A stretch of DNA of 31,446 bases from a virus (Duplodnaviria > Heunggongvirae > Uroviricota > Caudoviricetes), in IMG/VR virus record IMGVR_UViG_2872698443_000005. One strand, given 5' to 3'. Of the stretch, positions 5,371 to 26,486 are shown piece after piece. Made by a program: the position numbers and the translations under genes. The notes under the pieces were generated by a model. It was not told where the DNA came from. It saw only the letters and a program-made list of their open reading frames with translations, and ran no database searches. Numbering within the stretch: position 1 is the first letter of the stretch; each line of letters starts with the position of its first letter.

Positions 5371-5472
5371 TATTATTTGTACCTCTTGAGATTTCCTTGT
5401 TGGTTTTTCTCTCTGATATTTTTTTTTCGGACCATTCTGCCCAAGGGCTAATTTCTTCAAAAGGTAATAATT

Positions 5473-10961: not shown

Positions 10962-12469
10962 TGGCAATTCTTGATGATGTGATTGGCGTTTTTTCACCAG
11001 GATGGAAAGCGGCAAGGCTGCGTTCCCGAGCGGTGATCCAAGCTTATGAGGCCGTAAAAACGACGCGGACACACAAAGCCCGACGGGAGAACCGAACTGC
11101 CGACCAGTTAAGCCAGTACGGGGCCGTGTCGTTACGTGAGCAGGCCCGTTACCTTGATAACAACCACGATCTGGTCATTGGTGTATTTGACAAGCTGGAA
11201 GAACGGGTGGTGGGGAAAAACGGGATTATTGTCGAGCCACATCCGGTATTACGCAATGGTGCCATTGCCCGTGACCTGGCAGCGGAGATACGTACCCGAT
11301 GGAGTGAATGGTCTGTCAGTCCGGAAGTCACCGGGCAGTTTACCCGTCCGATGCTGGAACGTCTGATGCTGCGTACCTGGCTGCGCGATGGTGAGGTGTT
11401 TGCCCAGATGGTTTCCGGGCGCATAAACAGCCTGACGCCTTCTGCCGGTGTTCATTTCTGGCTGGAGGCGCTCGAGCCGGACTTTATTCCCATGACCAGT
11501 GATGAGAGCAACAGGCTGAATCAGGGCGTGTTTGTTGATGACTGGGGGCGTCCCGAAAAATATCTGGTGTATAAAAGTCGTCCTGTATCCGGACGGCAGA
11601 TGGAAACCAAAGAAGTGGATGCAGAGCGAATGCTGCATCTTAAATTTGTTCGCCGTCTGCACCAGATGCGCGGGACGTCTTTATTGTCCGGTGTGCTGAT
11701 CCGCCTCAGCGCCCTGAAAGAGTATGAAGATTCTGAGCTGACTGCAGCAAGGATCGCCGCTGCTCTGGGGATGTACATCCGGAAAGGCGACGGACAGAGC
11801 TATGAAACGGATGGTAATGACAGCAAGGAGAATGAACGCGAGCTTACCATTCAGCCAGGCATTATTTACGACGATCTGAAACCCGGCGAAGAAATCGGAA
11901 TGGTGAAGTCGGATCGTCCCAATCCTAACCTTGAAACTTTTCGTAATGGTCAGTTGCGTGCCGTGGCGGCGGGCAGTCGTCTGAGTTTTTCCAGTACGGC
12001 ACGCAACTATAACGGTACTTACAGCGCCCAGCGTCAGGAACTGGTTGAGTCTACTGATGGCTACCTGATCCTGCAGGACTGGTTTATTGGTGCCGTCACC
12101 CGCCCGATGTATCGTGCCTGGCTGAAACAGGCTGTGGCATCCGGTGTTATCAGGCTACCCCGCGATCTTGACCGTTCTTCACTGTATACCGCGGTGTATT
12201 CCGGACCAGTGATGCCGTGGATTGACCCTGTTAAGGAGGCTGAGGCCTGGAAAATCCAGATTCGTGGTGGAGCGGCGACAGAATCAGACTGGGTACGTGC
12301 TGGTGGTCGTAATCCGGATGATGTCAAACGTCGGCGCAAGGCCGAAATTGATGAAAACCGCAAGCTGGATCTGGTATTTGATACCGATCCGGCCAGTGAT
12401 AAAGGAGGCAGCAGTGCCGCAACGAAACGACAGGAGCCGCAGCACACCGACGACCAGTCCGAAGAATAA
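10961..12469 (+). CDS. Portal protein (assigned by position and size; not lambda gpB-like in sequence)
   Basis: 502-aa ORF directly after the gpW-like gene and before the protease-capsid gene. Confidence 0.7.
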   Translation: MAILDDVIGVFSPGWKAARLRSRAVIQAYEAVKTTRTHKARRENRTADQLSQYGAVSLREQARYLDNNHDLVIGVFDKLEERVVGKNGIIVEPHPVLRNGAIARDLAAEIRTRWSEWSVSPEVTGQFTRPMLERLMLRTWLRDGEVFAQMVSGRINSLTPSAGVHFWLEALEPDFIPMTSDESNRLNQGVFVDDWGRPEKYLVYKSRPVSGRQMETKEVDAERMLHLKFVRRLHQMRGTSLLSGVLIRLSALKEYEDSELTAARIAAALGMYIRKGDGQSYETDGNDSKENERELTIQPGIIYDDLKPGEEIGMVKSDRPNPNLETFRNGQLRAVAAGSRLSFSSTARNYNGTYSAQRQELVESTDGYLILQDWFIGAVTRPMYRAWLKQAVASGVIRLPRDLDRSSLYTAVYSGPVMPWIDPVKEAEAWKIQIRGGAATESDWVRAGGRNPDDVKRRRKAEIDENRKLDLVFDTDPASDKGGSSAATKRQEPQHTDDQSEE

Positions 12470-12482
12470 TTCCTGGTTCAGG

Positions 12483-14441
12483 ATGCAGGCTGGTCACCAG
12501 AGTGACGCGGATATTTATATTTATGACGAGATTGGTTTCTGGGGTGTTACAGCGAAGCAGTTTATCAGTGATCTGAATGCACTGGGCGATATCACCCACA
12601 TTAATCTCCATATTAATTCACCGGGTGGCGATGTCTTTGAAGGCATCGCCATTTTTAATGCGCTGAAAACACATGGTGCGTCCATTACGGTTTATGTCGA
12701 CGGTGTGGCGGCGTCAATGGCGTCGGTCATTGCGATGGTGGGAAACCCGGTCATTATGCCGGAAAACACTTTCATGATGATTCATAAACCATTTGGCTTT
12801 ACGGGCGGTGATGCGGAGGACATGCGCACCTATGCCGACCTGCTCGATAAAGTTGAGGCGGTTCTGTTACCCGCTTATGCACAGAAAACCGGGAAAACCA
12901 CCGATGAAATTGCTGCCATGCTGGCGGATGAGACCTGGATGTCCGGTGCCGAATGTCTGGCACATGGATTTGCTGATCAGGTAACGCCAGCCGTTAAGGC
13001 AATGGCATGTATTCAGTCAAAACGTACAGAGGAATTTAAAAAGATGCCGGAATCCATTCGAAACATGATTACTCCGCCACGCAACAGTGCTCCACGCGTA
13101 CAGGATGATGAACCTGCAGCCTCCCGGACGCCAGTGCAGGCAGCAGCACCCGTGGTGGATGAAAACAGTATCCGTGCGCAGGTACTGGCAGAGCAAAAAG
13201 CGCGTGTAAACGGTATTAATGATCTGTTTGCCATGTTTGGCGGGCGTTATCAGACTCTGCAGGCTCAGTGTCTTGCCGATCCTGAATGTTCGCTGGAGCA
13301 GGCCCGCGAAAAGCTGTTGAACGAGATGGGGCGCGAGTCCACGCCATCCAATAAAAATACCCCGGCTCATATTTATGCCGGTAACGGTAATTTTGTGGGG
13401 GACGGGATCCGCCAGGCGCTGATGGCGCGTGCCGGATTTGAAAAAACCGAACGTGATAATGTCTACAACGGGATGACCCTGCGTGAATATGCCCGTATGT
13501 CACTGACTGAACGGGGTATTGGGGTTTCCAGTTATAACCCGATGCAGATGGTCGGTGCGGCGTTCACACACAGTACGTCTGACTTCGGTAATATTCTGCT
13601 GGATGTTGCGAACAAAGCCATTCTGCAGGGCTGGGAAGATGCTCCTGAAACCTATGAACAGTGGACGCGGAAAGGTCAGTTGTCTGATTTTAAAATTGCC
13701 CATCGTGTGGGTATGGGGGGCTTCAGTGCTCTGCGTCAGGTGCGTGAAGGGGCGGAATATAAATACGTCACCACCGGAGATAAACAGGCCACTATTGCAC
13801 TGGCGACCTATGGCGAGCTGTTCAGTATCACCCGTCAGGCCATTATCAATGATGATCTGAATATGCTGACCGATGTCCCGATGAAGCTGGGCCGTGCGGC
13901 GAAATCCACCATTGCCGATCTGGTTTATGCCATTCTGACGTCTAACCCGAAAATCTCCACAGATAATGTAAGTCTGTTCGATAAAGCGAAACATGCAAAC
14001 GTACTGGAGAGCGCTGCAATGGACGTGGCATCGCTGGATAAAGCCCGCCAGTTGATGCGCGTTCAGAAAGAGGGGGAGCGTCATCTGAATATTCGTCCTG
14101 CGTTCGTACTGGTACCGACGGCGATGGAGTCTGTTGCTAACCAGGTCATTCGCTCCTCAAGTGTCAAGGGGGCTGACATTAACGCCGGTATTATTAACCC
14201 GGTGAAAGATTTTGCGACCGTTATTGCAGAGCCTCGTCTTGATGATAACAGCCAGACCACCTTCTACCTGGCTGCGTCCAAAGGCTCCGATACGATTGAA
14301 GTGGCTTATCTCAACGGTGTGGATACGCCATATATTGATCAGATGGAGGGCTTCAGTGTGGATGGCGTGACAACGAAAGTGCGTATTGACGCCGGTGTCG
14401 CGCCAGTTGATCACCGCGGTCTGGTGAAATGTACGGCGTAA
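12483..14441 (+). CDS. Single ORF with ClpP-like prohead protease N-terminus, scaffold-like middle region and HK97-fold major capsid C-terminus
   Basis: 652 aa from the first ATG after the portal stop. N-terminus has ClpP/S14-like motifs (GGDVFEGIAIFNALK, GVAASMASVI, MMIHKP); the middle is Ala/Gln-rich and helical; the C-terminal ~300 aa look like a capsid domain. No stop or frame change between the parts. Confidence 0.75.
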   Translation: MQAGHQSDADIYIYDEIGFWGVTAKQFISDLNALGDITHINLHINSPGGDVFEGIAIFNALKTHGASITVYVDGVAASMASVIAMVGNPVIMPENTFMMIHKPFGFTGGDAEDMRTYADLLDKVEAVLLPAYAQKTGKTTDEIAAMLADETWMSGAECLAHGFADQVTPAVKAMACIQSKRTEEFKKMPESIRNMITPPRNSAPRVQDDEPAASRTPVQAAAPVVDENSIRAQVLAEQKARVNGINDLFAMFGGRYQTLQAQCLADPECSLEQAREKLLNEMGRESTPSNKNTPAHIYAGNGNFVGDGIRQALMARAGFEKTERDNVYNGMTLREYARMSLTERGIGVSSYNPMQMVGAAFTHSTSDFGNILLDVANKAILQGWEDAPETYEQWTRKGQLSDFKIAHRVGMGGFSALRQVREGAEYKYVTTGDKQATIALATYGELFSITRQAIINDDLNMLTDVPMKLGRAAKSTIADLVYAILTSNPKISTDNVSLFDKAKHANVLESAAMDVASLDKARQLMRVQKEGERHLNIRPAFVLVPTAMESVANQVIRSSSVKGADINAGIINPVKDFATVIAEPRLDDNSQTTFYLAASKGSDTIEVAYLNGVDTPYIDQMEGFSVDGVTTKVRIDAGVAPVDHRGLVKCTA

Positions 14442-14464: not shown

Positions 14465-14484
14465 GGCCCGTAAGGGCTTTTTTT
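14465..14484 (+). terminator. Possible rho-independent terminator after the capsid gene
   Basis: gccc-gtaa-gggc stem-loop followed by a run of seven T. Confidence 0.4.
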
Positions 14485-14527
14485 GTACCTGAAATCAGCC
14501 TCTGAACGGGGCTGTGCGGAGACAGTT

Positions 14528-14851
14528 ATGGCAAAGAATTTTGTAGAAGAAGGAAAAACGGTGGCGATTGTTGCCAGTGCAGCCATCAGCAGCGGAGATC
14601 TGGTGCAGGTGGGTGATGTTTTTGCGGTGGCGCTGACCGATATTCCACAGGGTGAAACAGGCGACGGCATGACCGAAGGTGTGTTTATCCTGCCTAAACT
14701 GAAAACGGATGACATGAAAACGGGTAAGAAGGTTTATCTGAAGTCCGGAAAAGTTCAGCTGACTAACAGCGGCTCTGATCCGCTGGTCGGGGTTGTCTGG
14801 GCAGATGCCGGAACCAGTGCAGAAGAAGTGCCGGTAAAACTCAATGTCTGA
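14528..14851 (+). CDS. Small head-associated protein (hypothetical), 107 aa
   Basis: ORF with a good RBS (ggaga); located between the capsid gene and the head-completion/tail genes. Confidence 0.5.
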   Translation: MAKNFVEEGKTVAIVASAAISSGDLVQVGDVFAVALTDIPQGETGDGMTEGVFILPKLKTDDMKTGKKVYLKSGKVQLTNSGSDPLVGVVWADAGTSAEEVPVKLNV

Positions 14852-16921: not shown

Positions 16922-17308
16922 ATGTTTCTGAAACAGGACACGTTTAATTATGAAAAACAGTCCGTGGTGCTCAGTGAGCTGTCCGGGCTGCAGAGAATTG
17001 AATATCTGACGTTTGTTCAGCAGCGAACGGCAAAGTTTGATGCCGGGGAGGGAGAACTGCCGGAGGCTGAACGACAGATTGCTTTTCTGCGGATGGGGAT
17101 GGATATCAATGCCTGGCTGGTTTCCCGCTCACTGTGGAATGCGGATCAGTCTAAGGATGTAGAGACGCTTTGCGCATCCGTTATTACAACATGGTCGTAT
17201 GATGCCCTGGGTGCGGGGGCGGAGATGGTTCTGTCGCTGAGCGGTATGGGGGCCATTGATAATGCCGTGGATGATGAGCATGAGGCGCTGACGCCGGAAA
17301 AGTCCTGA
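16922..17308 (+). CDS. G: Tail assembly chaperone G (lambda gpG homologue)
   Basis: MFLKQDTFNYEKQSVVLSELSGLQRIEYL...AEMVLSLSGMGAIDNA... resembles recalled lambda G; RBS ggtggaga. Confidence 0.85.
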   Translation: MFLKQDTFNYEKQSVVLSELSGLQRIEYLTFVQQRTAKFDAGEGELPEAERQIAFLRMGMDINAWLVSRSLWNADQSKDVETLCASVITTWSYDALGAGAEMVLSLSGMGAIDNAVDDEHEALTPEKS

Positions 17309-17646
17309 CGCGGGAAATGCAGTTTGTCATGCGGCTTGCCCGGGAGTTCCGGCGGGCAGACTGGCGGCGGATGCTGTCGGAAATGTCGGCCACTGAGCTT
17401 GGTGAGTGGGGCGATTATTTCCGGATGCAGAGCTTCAGTGATGTGTGGATGGATGCGCAGTTTGCCTCGCTGAAGGCATTGATCGTGAGAATGGTGTCCG
17501 GCAGCAGTGATGCTGCGGTGGCTGATTTCAGCCTTTTACCGGAAGAGAACGGGATACCGGAGCGAACGGACGAAGAACTGATGCATCTTGGGGAAGGTAT
17601 TTCCGGAGGTGTGCGTTATGGACCAGATAGCCAACCTGGTCATTGA
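17284..17646 (+). CDS. T: T reading frame, predicted to be expressed only as a G-T fusion by a -1 ribosomal frameshift near the 3' end of G
   Basis: The -1 frame opens at 17284 and the G stop is at 17306-17308, so the slip must occur within about 22 nt. That window contains GGAAAAG (17296-17302), at the position of lambda's GGGAAAG slip site. Confidence 0.7.
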   Translation, partial: GADAGKVLTREMQFVMRLAREFRRADWRRMLSEMSATELGEWGDYFRMQSFSDVWMDAQFASLKALIVRMVSGSSDAAVADFSLLPEENGIPERTDEELMHLGEGISGGVRYGPDSQPGH

Positions 17647-23073: not shown

Positions 23074-26000
23074 ATGGGTAAAGGAAGCAGTAAGGGGCAT
23101 ACCCCGCGCGAAGCGAAGGACAACCTGAAGTCCACGCAGTTGCTGAGTGTGATCGATGCCATCAGCGAAGGGCCGGTTGAAGGTCCGGTGGATGGATTAA
23201 AAAGCGTGCTGCTGAACAGTACGCCGGTGCTGGACAGTGAGGGGAATACCAACATCTCCGGCGTCACGGTGGTGTTCCGGGCAGGTGAGCAGGAGCAGAC
23301 ACCGCCGGAAGGTTTTGAATCCTCCGGCTCCGAGACTGTGCTGGGTACGGAAGTGAAATATGACACGCCGATCACCCGCACCATCACGTCGGCAAACATC
23401 GACCGTCTGCGCTTTACCTTCGGTGTGCAGGCACTGGTGGAAACCACCTCAAAGGGTGACCGGAATCCGTCGGAAGTCCGCCTGCTGGTTCAGATACAAC
23501 GTAACGGTGGCTGGGTGACGGAAAAAGATATCACCATTAAGGGCAAAACCACCTCGCAGTATCTGGCCTCGGTGGTGGTGGATAACCTGCCGCCGCGCCC
23601 GTTTAATATCCGGATGCGCAGAATGACGCCGGACAGCACCACAGACCAGCTGCAGAACAAAACGCTCTGGTCGTCATACACCGAAATCATCGATGTGAAA
23701 CAGTGCTACCCGAACACGGCACTGGTCGGCGTGCAGGTGGATTCGGAGCAGTTCGGCAGCCAGCAGGTGAGCCGTAATTATCATCTTCGCGGGCGCATTC
23801 TGCAGGTGCCGTCGAATTATAACCCGCAGACGCGGCAATACAGCGGTATCTGGGACGGAACGTTAAAACCGGCATACAGCAACAACATGGCCTGGTGTCT
23901 GTGGGATATGCTGACCCACCCGCGCTACGGCATGGGGAAACGTCTTGGTGCGGCAGATGTGGATAAATGGGCGCTGTATGTCATCGGCCAGAATTGCGAC
24001 CAGTCGGTGCCGGACGGCTTTGGCGGTACGGAGCCGCGCATCACCTGTAACGCTTACCTGACCACACAACGTAAGGCGTGGGATGTGCTCAGTGATTTCT
24101 GCTCGGCGATGCGCTGTATGCCGGTATGGAACGGGCAGACGCTGACGTTCGTGCAGGACCGACCGTCGGATAAGGTGTGGACCTATAACCGCAGTAATGT
24201 GGTGATGCCGGATGATGGCGCGCCGTTCCGCTACAGCTTCAGCGCCCTGAAAGACCGCCATAATGCCGTTGAGGTGAACTGGATTGACCCGGATAACGGC
24301 TGGGAGACGGCAACAGAGCTTGTGGAGGACTCGCAGGCCATTGCCCGTTACGGTCGTAATGTCACGAAGATGGATGCCTTTGGCTGTACCAGCCGGGGCA
24401 GGCACACCGCGCCGGGCTGTGGCTGATTAAAACGGAGCTGCTGGAAACGCAGACGGTGGACTTCAGCGTGGGTGCCGAAGGGCTTCGCCATGTGCCGGGC
24501 GATGTCATTGAAATCTGTGATGATGACTATGCCGGTATCAGCACCGGCGGGCGCGTGCTGGCGGTAAACAGCCAGACCCGGACGCTGACGCTCGACCGTG
24601 AAATCACGCTGCCATCCTCCGGTACCACGCTGATAAGCCTGGTTGACGGAAGTGGCAATCCGGTCAGCGTGGAGGTTCAGTCCGTCACCGACGGCGTGAA
24701 GGTAAAAGTGAGCCGTGTTCCTGACGGCGTTGCCGGATACAGCGTGTGGGGGCTGAAGTTGCCGACGTTGCGCCAGCGCCTGTTCCGCTGTGTGAGTATC
24801 CGTGAGAACAATGACGGCACGTATGCCATCACCGCCGTGCAGCATGTACCGGAAAAAGAAGCCATCGTGGATAACGGGGCGCACTTTGACGGCGACCAGA
24901 GCGGCACGGTGAATGGTGTCACGCCGCCAGCGGTGCAGCACCTGACCGCCGAAGTCACCGCAGACAGTGGGGAGTATCAGGTACTGGCCCGCTGGGACAC
25001 GCCGAAGGTGGTGAAGGGCGTGAGCTTCCTGCTCCGTCTGACCGTAACAGCGGATGACGGCAGTGAGCGGCTGGTCAGCACGGCCCGGACGACGGAAACC
25101 ACATACCGCTTCAGGCAGCTGGCGCTGGGGCGTTACATGCTGACGGTCCGGGCGGTAAATGCGTGGGGACAGCAGGGCGATCCGGCGTCGGTATCGTTCC
25201 GGATTGCCGCACCGGAAGCACCGTCGAGGATTGAGCTGACGCCGGGCTATTTTCAGATAACCGCCACGCCGCATCTTGCCGTTTATGACCCGACGGTACA
25301 GTTTGAGTTCTGGTTCTCGGAAAAGCGGATTACCGATATCAGGCAGGTTGAAACCACAGCCCGCTATCTTGGTACGGCGCTGTACTGGATAGCCGCCAGT
25401 ATCAATATCAAACCGGGCCATGATTATTACTTTTATATCCGCAGTGTGAACACCGTTGGCAAATCGGCATTCGTGGAGACCGTCGGTCGGGCGAGCGATA
25501 ATGCGGAAGGTTACCTGGATTTTTTCAAAGGCAAGATAACCGAATCCCATCTCGGCAAGGAGCTGCTGGAAAAAGTCGAGCTGACGGAGGATAACGCCAG
25601 CAAACTGGAGGAGTTTTCGAAAGAGTGGCAGGACGCTAACGATAAGTGGAATGCCATGTGGGGCGTCAAAATTGAGCAGACCAAAGACGGCAAACATTAT
25701 GTCGCGGGTATTGGCCTCAGCATGGAGGACACGGAGGAAGGCAAACTGAGTCAGTTTCTGGTTGCCGCTAACCGTATCGCATTTATTGACCCGGCAAACG
25801 GGAATGAAACGCCGATGTTTGTGGCGCAGGGCAATCAGATATTCATGAACGACGTGTTCCTGAAGCGCCTGACGGCCCCCACCATTACCAGCGGTGGCAG
25901 TCCTCCGGTATTTTCCCTGACATCAGACGGAAAGCTGACCGCTAAAAATGCGGATATCAGTGGCAGTGTGAATGCGAACGCCGGGACGCTCAACAATGTC

Positions 26001-26486
26001 ACGGTAAATGAAAACTGTACGATTAAGGGCATGCTGGAGGCGACTCAGGTCAGAGGTGACTTCGTTAAAGCTGTATCCAAATCATTTCCGAAACAGGCTG
26101 GTACGTGGGGTAACACGGAAACACCAAACGGGACGGTTACAGTCACCATCAGCGATGATCATAACTTTGACCGTCAAATCATTATTCCGCCCATTATCTT
26201 TAACGGAATAGCGTATAGCGATCCGGGAAGTGGTAATAACCCGGGAGGTACAAGATACACGGGTTATGGTTTTGAAGTTCGCAAAAACGGTGTATTAATC
26301 GCATCCAGAGAAACTAAAGGGGCCATTCCCGGTAGCTACAGTGCGGTTATTGATATGCCGAGTGGCAGGGGAAGCGTCACTCTGGAGTTTAAGGTTTTCC
26401 ATAAAGGCAATCAGTGGGCAGGTAATATCACCGACTGTACGGTGATTGTGACCAAAAAAGCCGCTTCCGGCATCAGTATTCGTTGA
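23074..26486 (+). pseudogene. J: Central tail fibre / host-specificity protein J (lambda gpJ homologue), reading frame broken near 24395-24398
   Basis: Two consecutive ORFs (23074-24426 and 24456-26486) together cover a J-like protein of about 1130 aa. The first stops at 24424-24426; the -1 frame carries on with ..[25 protein letters not shown]... The switch is at a GGGG run (24395-24398), consistent with one missing G. Confidence 0.9.

Follow-up and report, generated by a model that had tools for sequence, protein, structure and literature searches.

A Gifsy-2-type protease-scaffold-capsid fusion gene in a Qin-like Escherichia coli prophage and its candidate internal translation start

Described head-gene arrangements and the family of the fusion gene

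In phage HK97 the protease and the capsid protein are encoded by separate genes, and in the gp4/gp5 system of this phage the capsid protein, of the HK97 fold, carries a scaffold-like delta domain at its N-terminus, which the phage protease cuts off once assembly has taken place. The C protease of lambda has a ClpP fold too (clan SK). A third arrangement, a 'tripartite capsid gene', was reportedly the subject of a cryo-EM study on Gifsy-2 by Effantin et al. in 2010 (Virology 402:355), and the Gifsy-2 product is a 70%-identical homologue of the protein analyzed here. Published accounts describe the prohead protease and coat genes of Gifsy-2 as fused and the head proteins of mEp213 as similar (PMC12315714), and mention that the Gifsy-2 capsid bears a lambda-like trimeric decoration protein (PMC8538268) and has T=7 geometry (PMC8814770). 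Other literature searches, on fused protease/capsid genes, on Nu3 together with Gifsy, and on virion mass spectrometry, returned nothing useful. The original prediction for the present locus, that protease, scaffold, and major capsid are encoded as one ORF, had set it apart from lambda, and this contrast is correct, as C/nu3, D, and E are separate genes in lambda.

The element that carries the fusion gene is a Qin-like E. coli prophage. It was analyzed as a 31,446-nt window (the whole stretch of DNA under study), and all features given below lie on its plus strand. Judged by its sequence, the gene is an ordinary member of the already described Gifsy-2-type protease-scaffold-capsid fusion family. 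The protein scored 985.2 bits against NCBIfam NF045540 (scaf_prot_MCP1; ClpP-like prohead protease/major capsid protein fusion protein; cut-off 475), with coverage from end to end (residues 9-651 on profile positions 2-651 of 652), and matched PHROG 133 over its full length. By tblastn, identity was 69.8% at 100% coverage to the Gifsy-2 gene in NC_010393; the Fels-1 protein was 72% identical and the proteins of phages Tritos, mEp460, cdtI, and Ayreon were 99-100% identical, with an identical protein encoded by phages Tritos and PhiR55_1. Similar DNA was found in 2,125 of 5,426 complete E. coli genomes (~39%), and RefSeq names the product of identical DNA 'ClpP-like prohead protease/major capsid protein fusion protein'. 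A second prohead protease/MCP fusion family, NF045541 (scaf_prot_MCP2), matched residues 197-649 at 400 bits, below its cut-off of 525, and PHROG 4523 ('major head and protease protein') matched residues 186-651, the related scaffold and capsid part. Both of these matches leave the protease part uncovered, and this comparison of profiles places the protein encoded in the window in MCP1 rather than MCP2. The fusion itself, coming from a curated and widespread family, is not new. Many phage records, however, name the fusion gene merely 'head maturation protease', 'Nu3', or 'terminase protein', and those phages therefore seem to be without a capsid gene. Capsid proteins or prohead proteases are sensed by several bacterial defence systems.

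The gene order derived from Pfam and RefSeq was terminase gpA, a W-like gene, a lambda-family portal, the fusion gene, cement, a Gifsy-2-family protein, Z, U, and tube. Neither the Pfam scan of the neighbors nor the RefSeq annotation revealed a further gene for a protease, a scaffold, or a capsid protein in the head module, and the fusion gene therefore appears to supply all three functions. Directly 3′ of the fusion gene is a terminator-like hairpin (GGCCC-GTAA-GGGCT followed by T7; 14465..14485), and the mEp213 record has a rho-independent terminator annotated at the equivalent place. The gene for a head decoration (cement) protein follows at 14528..14851 (Pfam PF09956 Phage_cement_2, E-value 1e-20) and comes next after the fusion gene in every related locus inspected. 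A search for an internal promoter detected no sigma-70-like site between 12300 and 14900. Overall, the locus is very probably best explained as a typical Gifsy-2-type tripartite head gene of lambdoid prophages, with a polyprotein that supplies three functions.

Reading frame, start codon, and domains

A single open frame without internal stop extends from ATG 12483 to the stop codon at 14439-14441, as had been claimed for the 652-aa ORF originally drawn at 12483..14441. Its start point fared less well. The frame is open further upstream, and GTG 12414, located 69 nt 5′ of the ATG and equipped with a strong Shine-Dalgarno (SD) sequence (AAGGAGG, 12402..12408; duplex with the 16S 3′ end of -11.6 kcal/mol), is preferred. 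From this codon, the full-length gene (12414..14441) would encode a fusion of 675 aa and 73.5 kDa that joins a ClpP-like prohead protease to a scaffold and the major capsid protein, and it overlaps the 3′ end of the portal gene by 56 nt. For ATG 12483, no SD of -4 kcal/mol or stronger was predicted, methionine occupies its column in just 39 of the 73 orthologues, and the SW[F/Y] residues upstream of it are conserved across orthologues. In addition, the 675-aa form is the RefSeq annotation of identical DNA, and the AAGGAGG motif of the GTG is also found in mEp213. These features indicate that translation probably starts at GTG 12414 (675 aa) rather than at ATG 12483; the ATG, picked by many phage records as well as by the original prediction, is an improbable start.

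Pfam, NCBIfam, PHROG, and PDB-profile searches backed the proposed three-module reading of an N-terminal ClpP-like protease, a scaffold-like center, and a C-terminal capsid, with Pfam domains matched at both the protease N-terminus and the capsid C-terminus. The protease (peptidase S14 fold; 12549..12986) matched PF00574 CLP_protease over residues 23-168 (E-value 4e-36), and this part scored 216 bits against NF045542 ('head maturation protease, ClpP-related'). Its predicted catalytic residues in the 652-aa numbering are Ser78 (12714-12716, AASMAS motif), His101 (12783-12785, MIHKP motif), and Asp165 (12975-12977, GFADQ motif), which correspond to S101, H124, and D188 of the 675-aa form. The triad, located in the ClpP motifs GxAASM, IHxP, and GxxD, aligned with ClpP chains 1y7o and 6hwm (AASMAS/AASMG, MIHKP/MIHQP, and GFADQ/GFIDE) and was invariant in 21 relatives; in the Providencia PSTCR8lys orthologue, Asn replaces the catalytic Asp. 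AF2 modeling gave pLDDT values of 74-88 in most 10-residue blocks of the protease, with values below 50 around residues 126-143 (675-aa numbering).

The center of the protein, a region of ~107 aa that had no Pfam match, had been described as a helical Ala/Gln-rich linker. This was roughly right: the region is rich in Ala, Pro, Glu, and Gln, and consists of a variable linker plus a helical segment. The hypervariable Pro/Ala/Gln-rich linker (13068..13157) differs in length among orthologues and was modeled at pLDDT below 50. Based on alignments and AF2, it is followed by a helical scaffold-like (Nu3-like) domain of ~65 aa with a short variable linker (13158..13364), in which a conserved block, DExxIRAQVxAEQxxRxxGIxDLF...AKDKLL, and three predicted helices (pLDDT 62-79) were recognized. 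The major capsid domain (13365..14438), of the HK97-fold family by sequence, matched PF25209 Phage_capsid_4 over residues 352-649 (E-value 7e-55) and also Mu-like_gpT PF10124 (E-value 4e-8), and matches were obtained in 10,634 cluster representatives. When the PDB was searched with the whole protein sequence only cellular ClpP was retrieved; capsid structures were reached only by the family profile, which matched the Mu GpT-domain capsid proteins 8rkc and 8rkx (E-value 2e-13) and 9jod (E-value 1e-11). The AF2 model of the 675-aa protein, built on a shallow alignment of 21 relatives (71-96% identity), had a mean pLDDT of 44.7 and was below 50 over residues 353-675. Because the capsid part of the model is thus unreliable, the capsid fold assignment rests on sequence profiles.

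A conserved candidate start within the fusion gene

A fused precursor had been thought to imply self-cleavage on assembly, or internal initiation or frameshifting of a kind that the sequence does not reveal. Comparison of orthologues did expose a conserved SD and ATG, at 13029-13046, just 3′ of the protease domain. An SD-like GAGGA (13029..13033) lies 10 nt upstream of an in-frame ATG at 13044, and the predicted nested gene (13044..14441), which shares the stop codon of the fusion, would encode a scaffold and major capsid protein of 465 aa and 50.7 kDa without the protease. The comparison included 73 genome/phage orthologues and 66 IMG/VR orthologues, about 140 relatives. ATG 13044 was kept in all of the first set (73/73), in each case preceded by an SD whose duplex reaches -5 kcal/mol or better, and NAGGA-N10-ATG was kept in the second (66/66), such that an ATG was present at the fixed distance in 139/139 sequences in total. 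Within the codon alignment, an SD core with a frequency of 90% or more among the 73 orthologues was detected only at 13029-13033 (where it reached 100%).

The conservation extended to bases that the encoded peptide leaves free. At the -5 codon, Glu was encoded by GAG in 63/63 cases, Lys by AAG in 7/7, and Gln by CAG in 2/2, with G as the third base in 72 of 73 sequences; the sole exception, a Gly codon, still yields GGAG. The 63/63 use of GAG at this position compares with a share of Glu codons of 37% gene-wide and of 21-51% at nine control Glu columns. The -5 codon was the most synonymously constrained of 245 columns, and AAA at -8 was the second. The 50 nt around ATG 13044 were among the least-structured 3.4% of windows, with a GC content of 36% versus 51% for the gene, and this region was weakly structured in 100% of the orthologues (z >1 in 93%). 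Taken together, these comparative data suggest, with a fair degree of probability, that ATG 13044 is a real second start giving a 50.7-kDa protease-free scaffold-capsid protein. That the internal start is both real and previously unreported, making the tripartite gene a pair of nested genes, is put forward more tentatively.

Several other sites and relatives were inspected. In four 5′-truncated distant relatives an SD-like motif precedes the called start, e.g., AAGGAGAGG in locus L090; these called starts are upstream of the scaffold-like domain. No naturally split variant, with a separate protease and a scaffold-capsid gene beginning at the internal Met, was found among the short homologues checked, all of which were either contig-end fragments, six of them with the frame open upstream, or sequences of low quality. 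Internal starts at residues 114 and 153, which have an SD-like motif in many orthologues, were rejected as they are inside the protease fold and not universal; there, the motif arises from Gly-Gly-Asp or Glu codons. The distance between the SD and ATG 13044 measures 10 nt from AGGA, or 8 nt by full AGGAGG alignment, which is close to the upper limit of efficient spacing. The peptide encoded at the site, Glu-Glu/Asp-Phe...Met-Pro, is itself conserved and could be functional, e.g., as a cleavage or docking site. Such a function would account for some of the conservation, but not for that of synonymous positions or of the G across different amino acids.

In the strongest alternative, only the 73.5-kDa protein is made and each subunit brings protease and scaffold, at ~415 copies per T=7 procapsid. 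GAGGA-N10-ATG would then represent (i) a peptide constraint; (ii) an mRNA element; or (iii) a ribosome-pausing signal between domains. The frame is indeed continuous, the upstream SD is far stronger than the internal one (-11.6 versus -6.0 kcal/mol), the EEF..MP peptide is conserved at the protein level, and a nested gene was annotated in none of the records inspected. By our estimate, a cargo of 415 x ~35 kDa would occupy ~40% of the T=7 procapsid interior, which is dense but not impossible. However, a constraint on the peptide leaves unexplained why the minor codon GAG was used in 63/63 sequences and why the G was kept under Lys (AAG), Gln (CAG), and Gly (GGAG). Nor does it explain why the site ranks first in synonymous constraint or why mRNA structure has a conserved minimum there, and a pausing signal would need no ATG at a fixed distance. 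We consider this alternative rather unlikely, though still a serious competitor to a second start at ATG 13044.

Programmed frameshifting or termination in the linker, which would release free protease, or protease plus scaffold, beside the full-length protein, is highly improbable. The dnaX slippery motif, A-AAA-AAG, is also stimulated by an upstream SD, and the spacer between the internal SD and ATG in the window, TTT AAA AAG, resembles it. The window heptamer, however, is without the first A, and the spacer varies (GAA AAA, GAC GCT, ACT AAT, and GCC CAC) while the SD and ATG stay. No conserved frameshift site was found when the SD-ATG spacer was compared among orthologues, and the idea was rejected because the slippery-looking spacer is not conserved.

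The frame was also examined for its integrity. The DNA was 100% identical in six other complete E. coli genomes, and 12414-14441 was identical to a prophage of strain C5, with zero indels inside the ORF. Full-length matches among GTDB species-representative genomes (Enterobacterales, Pasteurellales, and Alteromonadales) had an unbroken frame in 66/66 cases, and the same continuous frame was present in 74 phage records, isolated plaque-forming phages among them, and in the majority of the 150 top-ranked cluster representatives. Among the IMG/VR loci, 69 of 80 had an unbroken frame; of the other 11, four were checked (three cut at contig ends and one, L161, in which the frame break stems from N-containing sequence) and seven have shorter stop-to-stop ORFs. 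The suspicion that separate protease/scaffold and capsid genes were joined by a recent frameshift, or by an error of sequencing or assembly such as a missing base, can draw on four single-base homopolymer indels in the window relative to a near-identical prophage, which show that such errors or mutations occur here, but with none of them within 12414-14441, the frame conserved across relatives, and a curated NCBIfam model for the fusion, it is refuted by the comparative data and has a negligible probability.

Proposed head assembly and comparison with lambda, HK97, and Gifsy-2

We propose a pathway in which initiation at GTG 12414 would give the 73.5-kDa polyprotein, composed of a ClpP-fold serine protease, a flexible Pro/Ala-rich linker, a Nu3-like scaffold, and an HK97-fold capsid domain. 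The capsid domains would assemble into the T=7 shell of the procapsid, inside which the scaffold and the protease would lie, the scaffold acting like the HK97 delta domain and the protease being delivered through its covalent attachment. The protease would then remove everything N-terminal of the capsid domain, with the presumed cut in the short variable linker before HIYAGNGN. This would leave a mature shell protein of ~39 kDa (if cut near Ala295), which would expand and be stabilized by trimers of the cement protein. A second initiation at ATG 13044 would produce the 50.7-kDa scaffold-capsid protein without protease; if this internal start is used, only a fraction of the subunits would therefore carry the protease. 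The nesting principle of lambda C/Nu3 would, in this manner, be applied to an HK97-like scaffold-capsid fusion. If true, the number of proteases packed per procapsid would be set by how strong the two starts are relative to each other, and if also undescribed, the second start would explain how ~415 proteases per head are avoided. With its comparative signal, the internal start offers a specific way to test what determines the protease stoichiometry of this family of heads.

The Gifsy-2 tripartite capsid gene (STM1033 region) has the same three modules in the same order and was colinear in a seven-way alignment. Its neighbors are also the same, with a lambda-family portal upstream and Phage_cement_2 and PF13856 'Gifsy-2' genes downstream. 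The architecture is unchanged relative to Gifsy-2; differences are found in the length and sequence of the variable linker and in the N-terminal extension before SW[F/Y].

With lambda, the locus shares the flanking module of gpA terminase, W, and a lambda-family portal, and both have a separate decoration protein, although lambda gpD and the cement protein found here are of different Pfam families. In lambda C/nu3 the protease has a C-terminal scaffold, and a second in-frame start gives the scaffold without the protease, as is proposed here. At the sequence level, the present locus has the elements of lambda-type nesting, i.e., an in-frame internal start with a ribosome-binding site 3′ of the protease and a shared stop. 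The two systems differ in that (i) lambda gpC is a member of family S49 rather than S14/ClpP; (ii) the lambda capsid protein E is encoded by a separate gene, with D located between nu3 and E; and (iii) the Nu3 start of lambda is inside the protease-aligned region, whereas the candidate start described here comes after the protease domain. Lambda gpC/Nu3 and the fusion had weak colinear similarity over 240 residues, including the C-terminal half of the protease and Nu3 (BLASTP E-value 0.007), and hhalign of the central domain with lambda gpC/Nu3 gave an E-value of 0.042 at a probability of 1%; at the sequence level, support for a common origin of the central domain and Nu3 is thus weak.

With respect to HK97, the predicted 465-aa internal product would be a direct analogue of gp5. 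The HK97 protease differs in being encoded by a separate gene and in belonging to another family (S78, herpesvirus-assemblin-like), the HK97 capsid is cross-linked and without decoration protein, and the capsid domain of the fusion is closer to the Mu gpT and Phage_capsid_4 families than to HK97. If the internal start is real, the solutions of lambda (C/Nu3 nesting) and HK97 (delta-domain fusion) would be united in one gene.

Domain architecture and start codon of the head gene

The + strand frame predicted for the fused head gene was found to be open, with no internal stop, from ATG 12483 to the stop codon at 14439-14441, coding for 652 aa. A Pfam search of this ORF identified the anticipated ClpP-like N-terminus as a Clp protease domain (residues 23-168, E 4e-36) and the C-terminal capsid domain as Phage_capsid_4 (residues 352-649, E 7e-55), within which a weaker match to Mu-like gpT was detected. 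When aligned to solved ClpP structures, Ser78, His101, and Asp165 fell in ClpP motifs, and all three were invariant among close relatives. The Providencia phage PSTCR8lys (L006) retains the triad Ser and His and carries GFAN for GFAD at the Asp165 column, with Asn replacing the third residue. The ~107-aa region separating the protease and capsid domains had no Pfam match and was partitioned by alignment of 46 diverse orthologues into: (i) a conserved MPxxxKNM motif; (ii) a hypervariable Pro/Ala/Gln-rich linker that differs in length; (iii) a conserved ~65-aa segment with three predicted helices (AF2 pLDDT 62-79); and (iv) a short variable linker followed by the conserved HIYAGNGN sequence. Based on this alignment and the three-helix prediction, the architecture first proposed is right in substance, with its helical linker corresponding to the ~65-aa segment plus the Pro/Ala/Gln-rich linker.

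The open frame of the original prediction held; its start codon probably did not. The frame continues open 5′ of 12483, no Shine-Dalgarno (SD) sequence of -4 kcal/mol or stronger was found for ATG 12483, and Met occupies this column in only 39 of 73 genome and phage orthologues. By comparison, an AAGGAGG at 12402-12408 (predicted duplex -11.6 kcal/mol) lies ahead of GTG 12414, and this GTG is 35-40 codons before the YDEIG motif, as is the best-SD start of most orthologues. A SW[F/Y] sequence 5′ of the Met at 12483 is conserved across Escherichia, Pasteurella, Shewanella, and Pseudomonas phages, and on identical DNA it is the 675-aa form that RefSeq gives. Judged from these sequence features, the gene most likely spans 12414-14441 (675 aa, 73.5 kDa), a frame whose beginning overlaps the 3′ end of the portal gene. 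Existing annotations differ, with RefSeq genomes using the upstream GTG with its strong SD, and many phage records, among them mEp460, cdtI, Tritos, and Ayreon, the ATG equivalent to 12483; the product is variously named 'Major head protein', 'head-tail preconnector protein Nu3', 'putative protease', and even 'terminase protein'.

Integrity and neighborhood of the fused gene

An assembly artifact, in which a missing base had fused two genes, was ruled out by identical E. coli DNA, by the absence of indels in the gene, and by unbroken orthologue frames. Six other complete E. coli chromosomes carry this DNA at 100% identity, and 2,125 of 5,426 complete E. coli genomes contain a match. Four single-base indels, each in a homopolymer (T-run, A7, G4/5, and G4/5), distinguish the window from the 99.8% identical prophage (L001) of E. 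coli strain C5; they lie at 5419, 10680, 21811, and 24394, outside the fusion gene. The frame was unbroken in 66/66 full-length matches (50-99% identity) from GTDB species-representative genomes of Enterobacterales, Pasteurellales, and Shewanella/Ferrimonas, in 74 phage records, and in 69 of 80 IMG/VR loci; of the other 11, four were checked (three contig-end cuts and one N-containing sequence) and seven were shorter stop-to-stop ORFs. With the capsid domain alone as query, 10,634 relatives were recovered from 1.84 billion cluster representatives, the best 150 of which were mostly 620-790 aa with the capsid domain C-terminal. Occasional disruption was observed: a Kluyvera contig (NZ_LGHZ01000021.1; L041 and L077) carries residues 1-135 and 121-674 about 8 kb apart, and phage VT1-Sakai (H117) has IS629 within the fusion gene. 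Three GTDB MAGs assigned to Bacillota (L009), Proteobacteria (L011), and Geobacteraceae (L014) carry an Escherichia/Enterobacteriaceae-type gene (99%, 99%, and 73% identity, respectively), which looks likely to reflect contamination or mis-binning.

Ahead of the fusion lie genes for a gpA-type terminase, a W-like small protein, and a lambda-family portal; after it come a Phage_cement_2 decoration gene, a PF13856 'Gifsy-2 family' gene, Z, U, and the tail tube gene, an order that fits a Gifsy-2-type identity. No further protease, scaffold, or capsid gene was found in the head module, and the flanks hold hokD, ydfU, cspB, essQ, and rrrQ, as is characteristic of the Qin prophage region. Between the capsid and decoration genes, a short GC hairpin followed by a T7 run (14465-14485) might raise capsid mRNA relative to the downstream genes; a rho-independent terminator is annotated at the equivalent place in the mEp213 record. 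Elsewhere in the window, the indels relative to C5 reflect either sequencing error or a decaying prophage: one alters the large terminase C-terminus (ORF end 10712, not 10752), one moves the gpK-like C40 peptidase start, and one splits the gpJ tail-tip gene (23074-24426 and 24456-26486). The frames of the two tail chaperone ORFs (gpG-like and gpT-like, 16922-17646) are compatible with a -1 G-T frameshift of the lambda type, but the lambda slippery heptamer GGGAAAG is absent from their junction.

A candidate internal start at 13044

Internal initiation had been regarded as something that the sequence does not reveal; comparison of orthologues, however, does reveal a conserved SD-like motif and ATG, a candidate start for a separate scaffold-capsid protein. 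The internal ATG at 13044 (residue 188 in the 652-aa numbering, context EEFKK-M-PES) is ATG in 73/73 non-identical genome and phage orthologues, and in every one an SD-like duplex at or below -5 kcal/mol lies ahead of it. NAGGA-N10-ATG-CCN was likewise kept in 66/66 further unique IMG/VR orthologues. In four more distant, 5′-truncated relatives the called start is also preceded by an SD-like motif (e.g., AAGGAGAGG-N6-ATG in L090); these starts lie 5′ of the scaffold-like domain. Counter to an internal start, the SD spacing is among the longest that are still efficient, and the peptide encoded here is conserved and may have a function of its own. At the codon level, the (N)AGGA motif is made by codons -5 and -4, with the -5 codon being GAG in 63/63 Glu, AAG in 7/7 Lys, and CAG in 2/2 Gln cases, and GGAG still present in the single Gly exception. 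Though GAG is the minor codon, encoding 37% of Glu residues in these genes and 21-51% of those at nine further conserved Glu columns, the -5 codon was the most constrained of 245 conserved degenerate codons, followed by AAA at -8. Synonymous sites are well diverged (median third-position identity at identical residues only 0.45), and across the 2-kb codon alignment an SD core was present in at least 90% of sequences only at the internal site. By the median, the 50 nt around the ATG ranked among the 3.4% of windows with the least structure, with mRNA structure z-scores above 0 in 100% and above 1 in 93% of orthologues and a GC content of 36% versus 51% gene-wide. Given this conservation and the nesting of lambda C and nu3 in exactly such a manner, we consider it reasonably probable that a 465-aa, 50.7-kDa scaffold-capsid protein is made from 13044 alongside the full-length protein.

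Natural split-gene variants were sought among short homologues and none were found, those checked being contig-end fragments or low-quality sequence. SD-like sequences also precede in-frame ATGs within the protease domain at 12822 (residue 114) and 12939 (residue 153) in many orthologues; stemming from Gly-Gly-Asp and Glu codons and less conserved than the 13044 site, these starts were judged incidental. Frameshifting was rejected because the slippery-looking spacer TTT AAA AAG of the window is not conserved.

Relationship to Gifsy-2, HK97, and lambda

The fused gene has been described before, belongs to a curated family, is very common, and would be no surprise to a specialist; the signal for internal initiation adds modestly to this and may or may not have been published already. 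The protein scored 985 bits (cut-off 475) against NCBIfam NF045540 ('ClpP-like prohead protease/major capsid protein fusion protein'), matched PHROG 133 end to end, and was 99-100% identical to proteins of the isolated phages Tritos, PhiR55_1, mEp460, cdtI, and Ayreon. Its capsid-domain profile matched solved Mu-GpT-type capsid proteins (8rkc and 8rkx, E 2e-13; 9jod, E 1e-11). Alignment to related prophage head genes gave 72% identity to Fels-1 and 69.8%, over the full length, to Gifsy-2, whose capsid gene is reportedly the subject of a study by Effantin et al. Three papers citing that study describe fused prohead protease and coat genes in Gifsy-2, with mEp213 heads of the same kind (PMC12315714), and, for the Gifsy-2 capsid, trimeric lambda-like decoration proteins (PMC8538268) and T=7 geometry (PMC8814770).

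Directly observed in the present locus are one ORF in which the ClpP-type triad is intact, a central helical domain that is conserved, and an HK97-fold-family capsid domain, with a cement gene downstream. By the precedents of Gifsy-2, HK97, and lambda, the capsid domains would build a procapsid that encloses the N-terminal parts, the protease would cut off all that is N-terminal of the capsid domain (leaving ~39 kDa if the cut falls in the variable linker before Ala295), and the shell would then expand and take on the cement protein. The central domain only weakly resembles lambda Nu3 (BLASTP E 0.007 over colinear 240 residues; hhalign E 0.042), and therefore we use 'scaffold' as a functional inference; the proposed 465-aa product would be the analogue of HK97 gp5.
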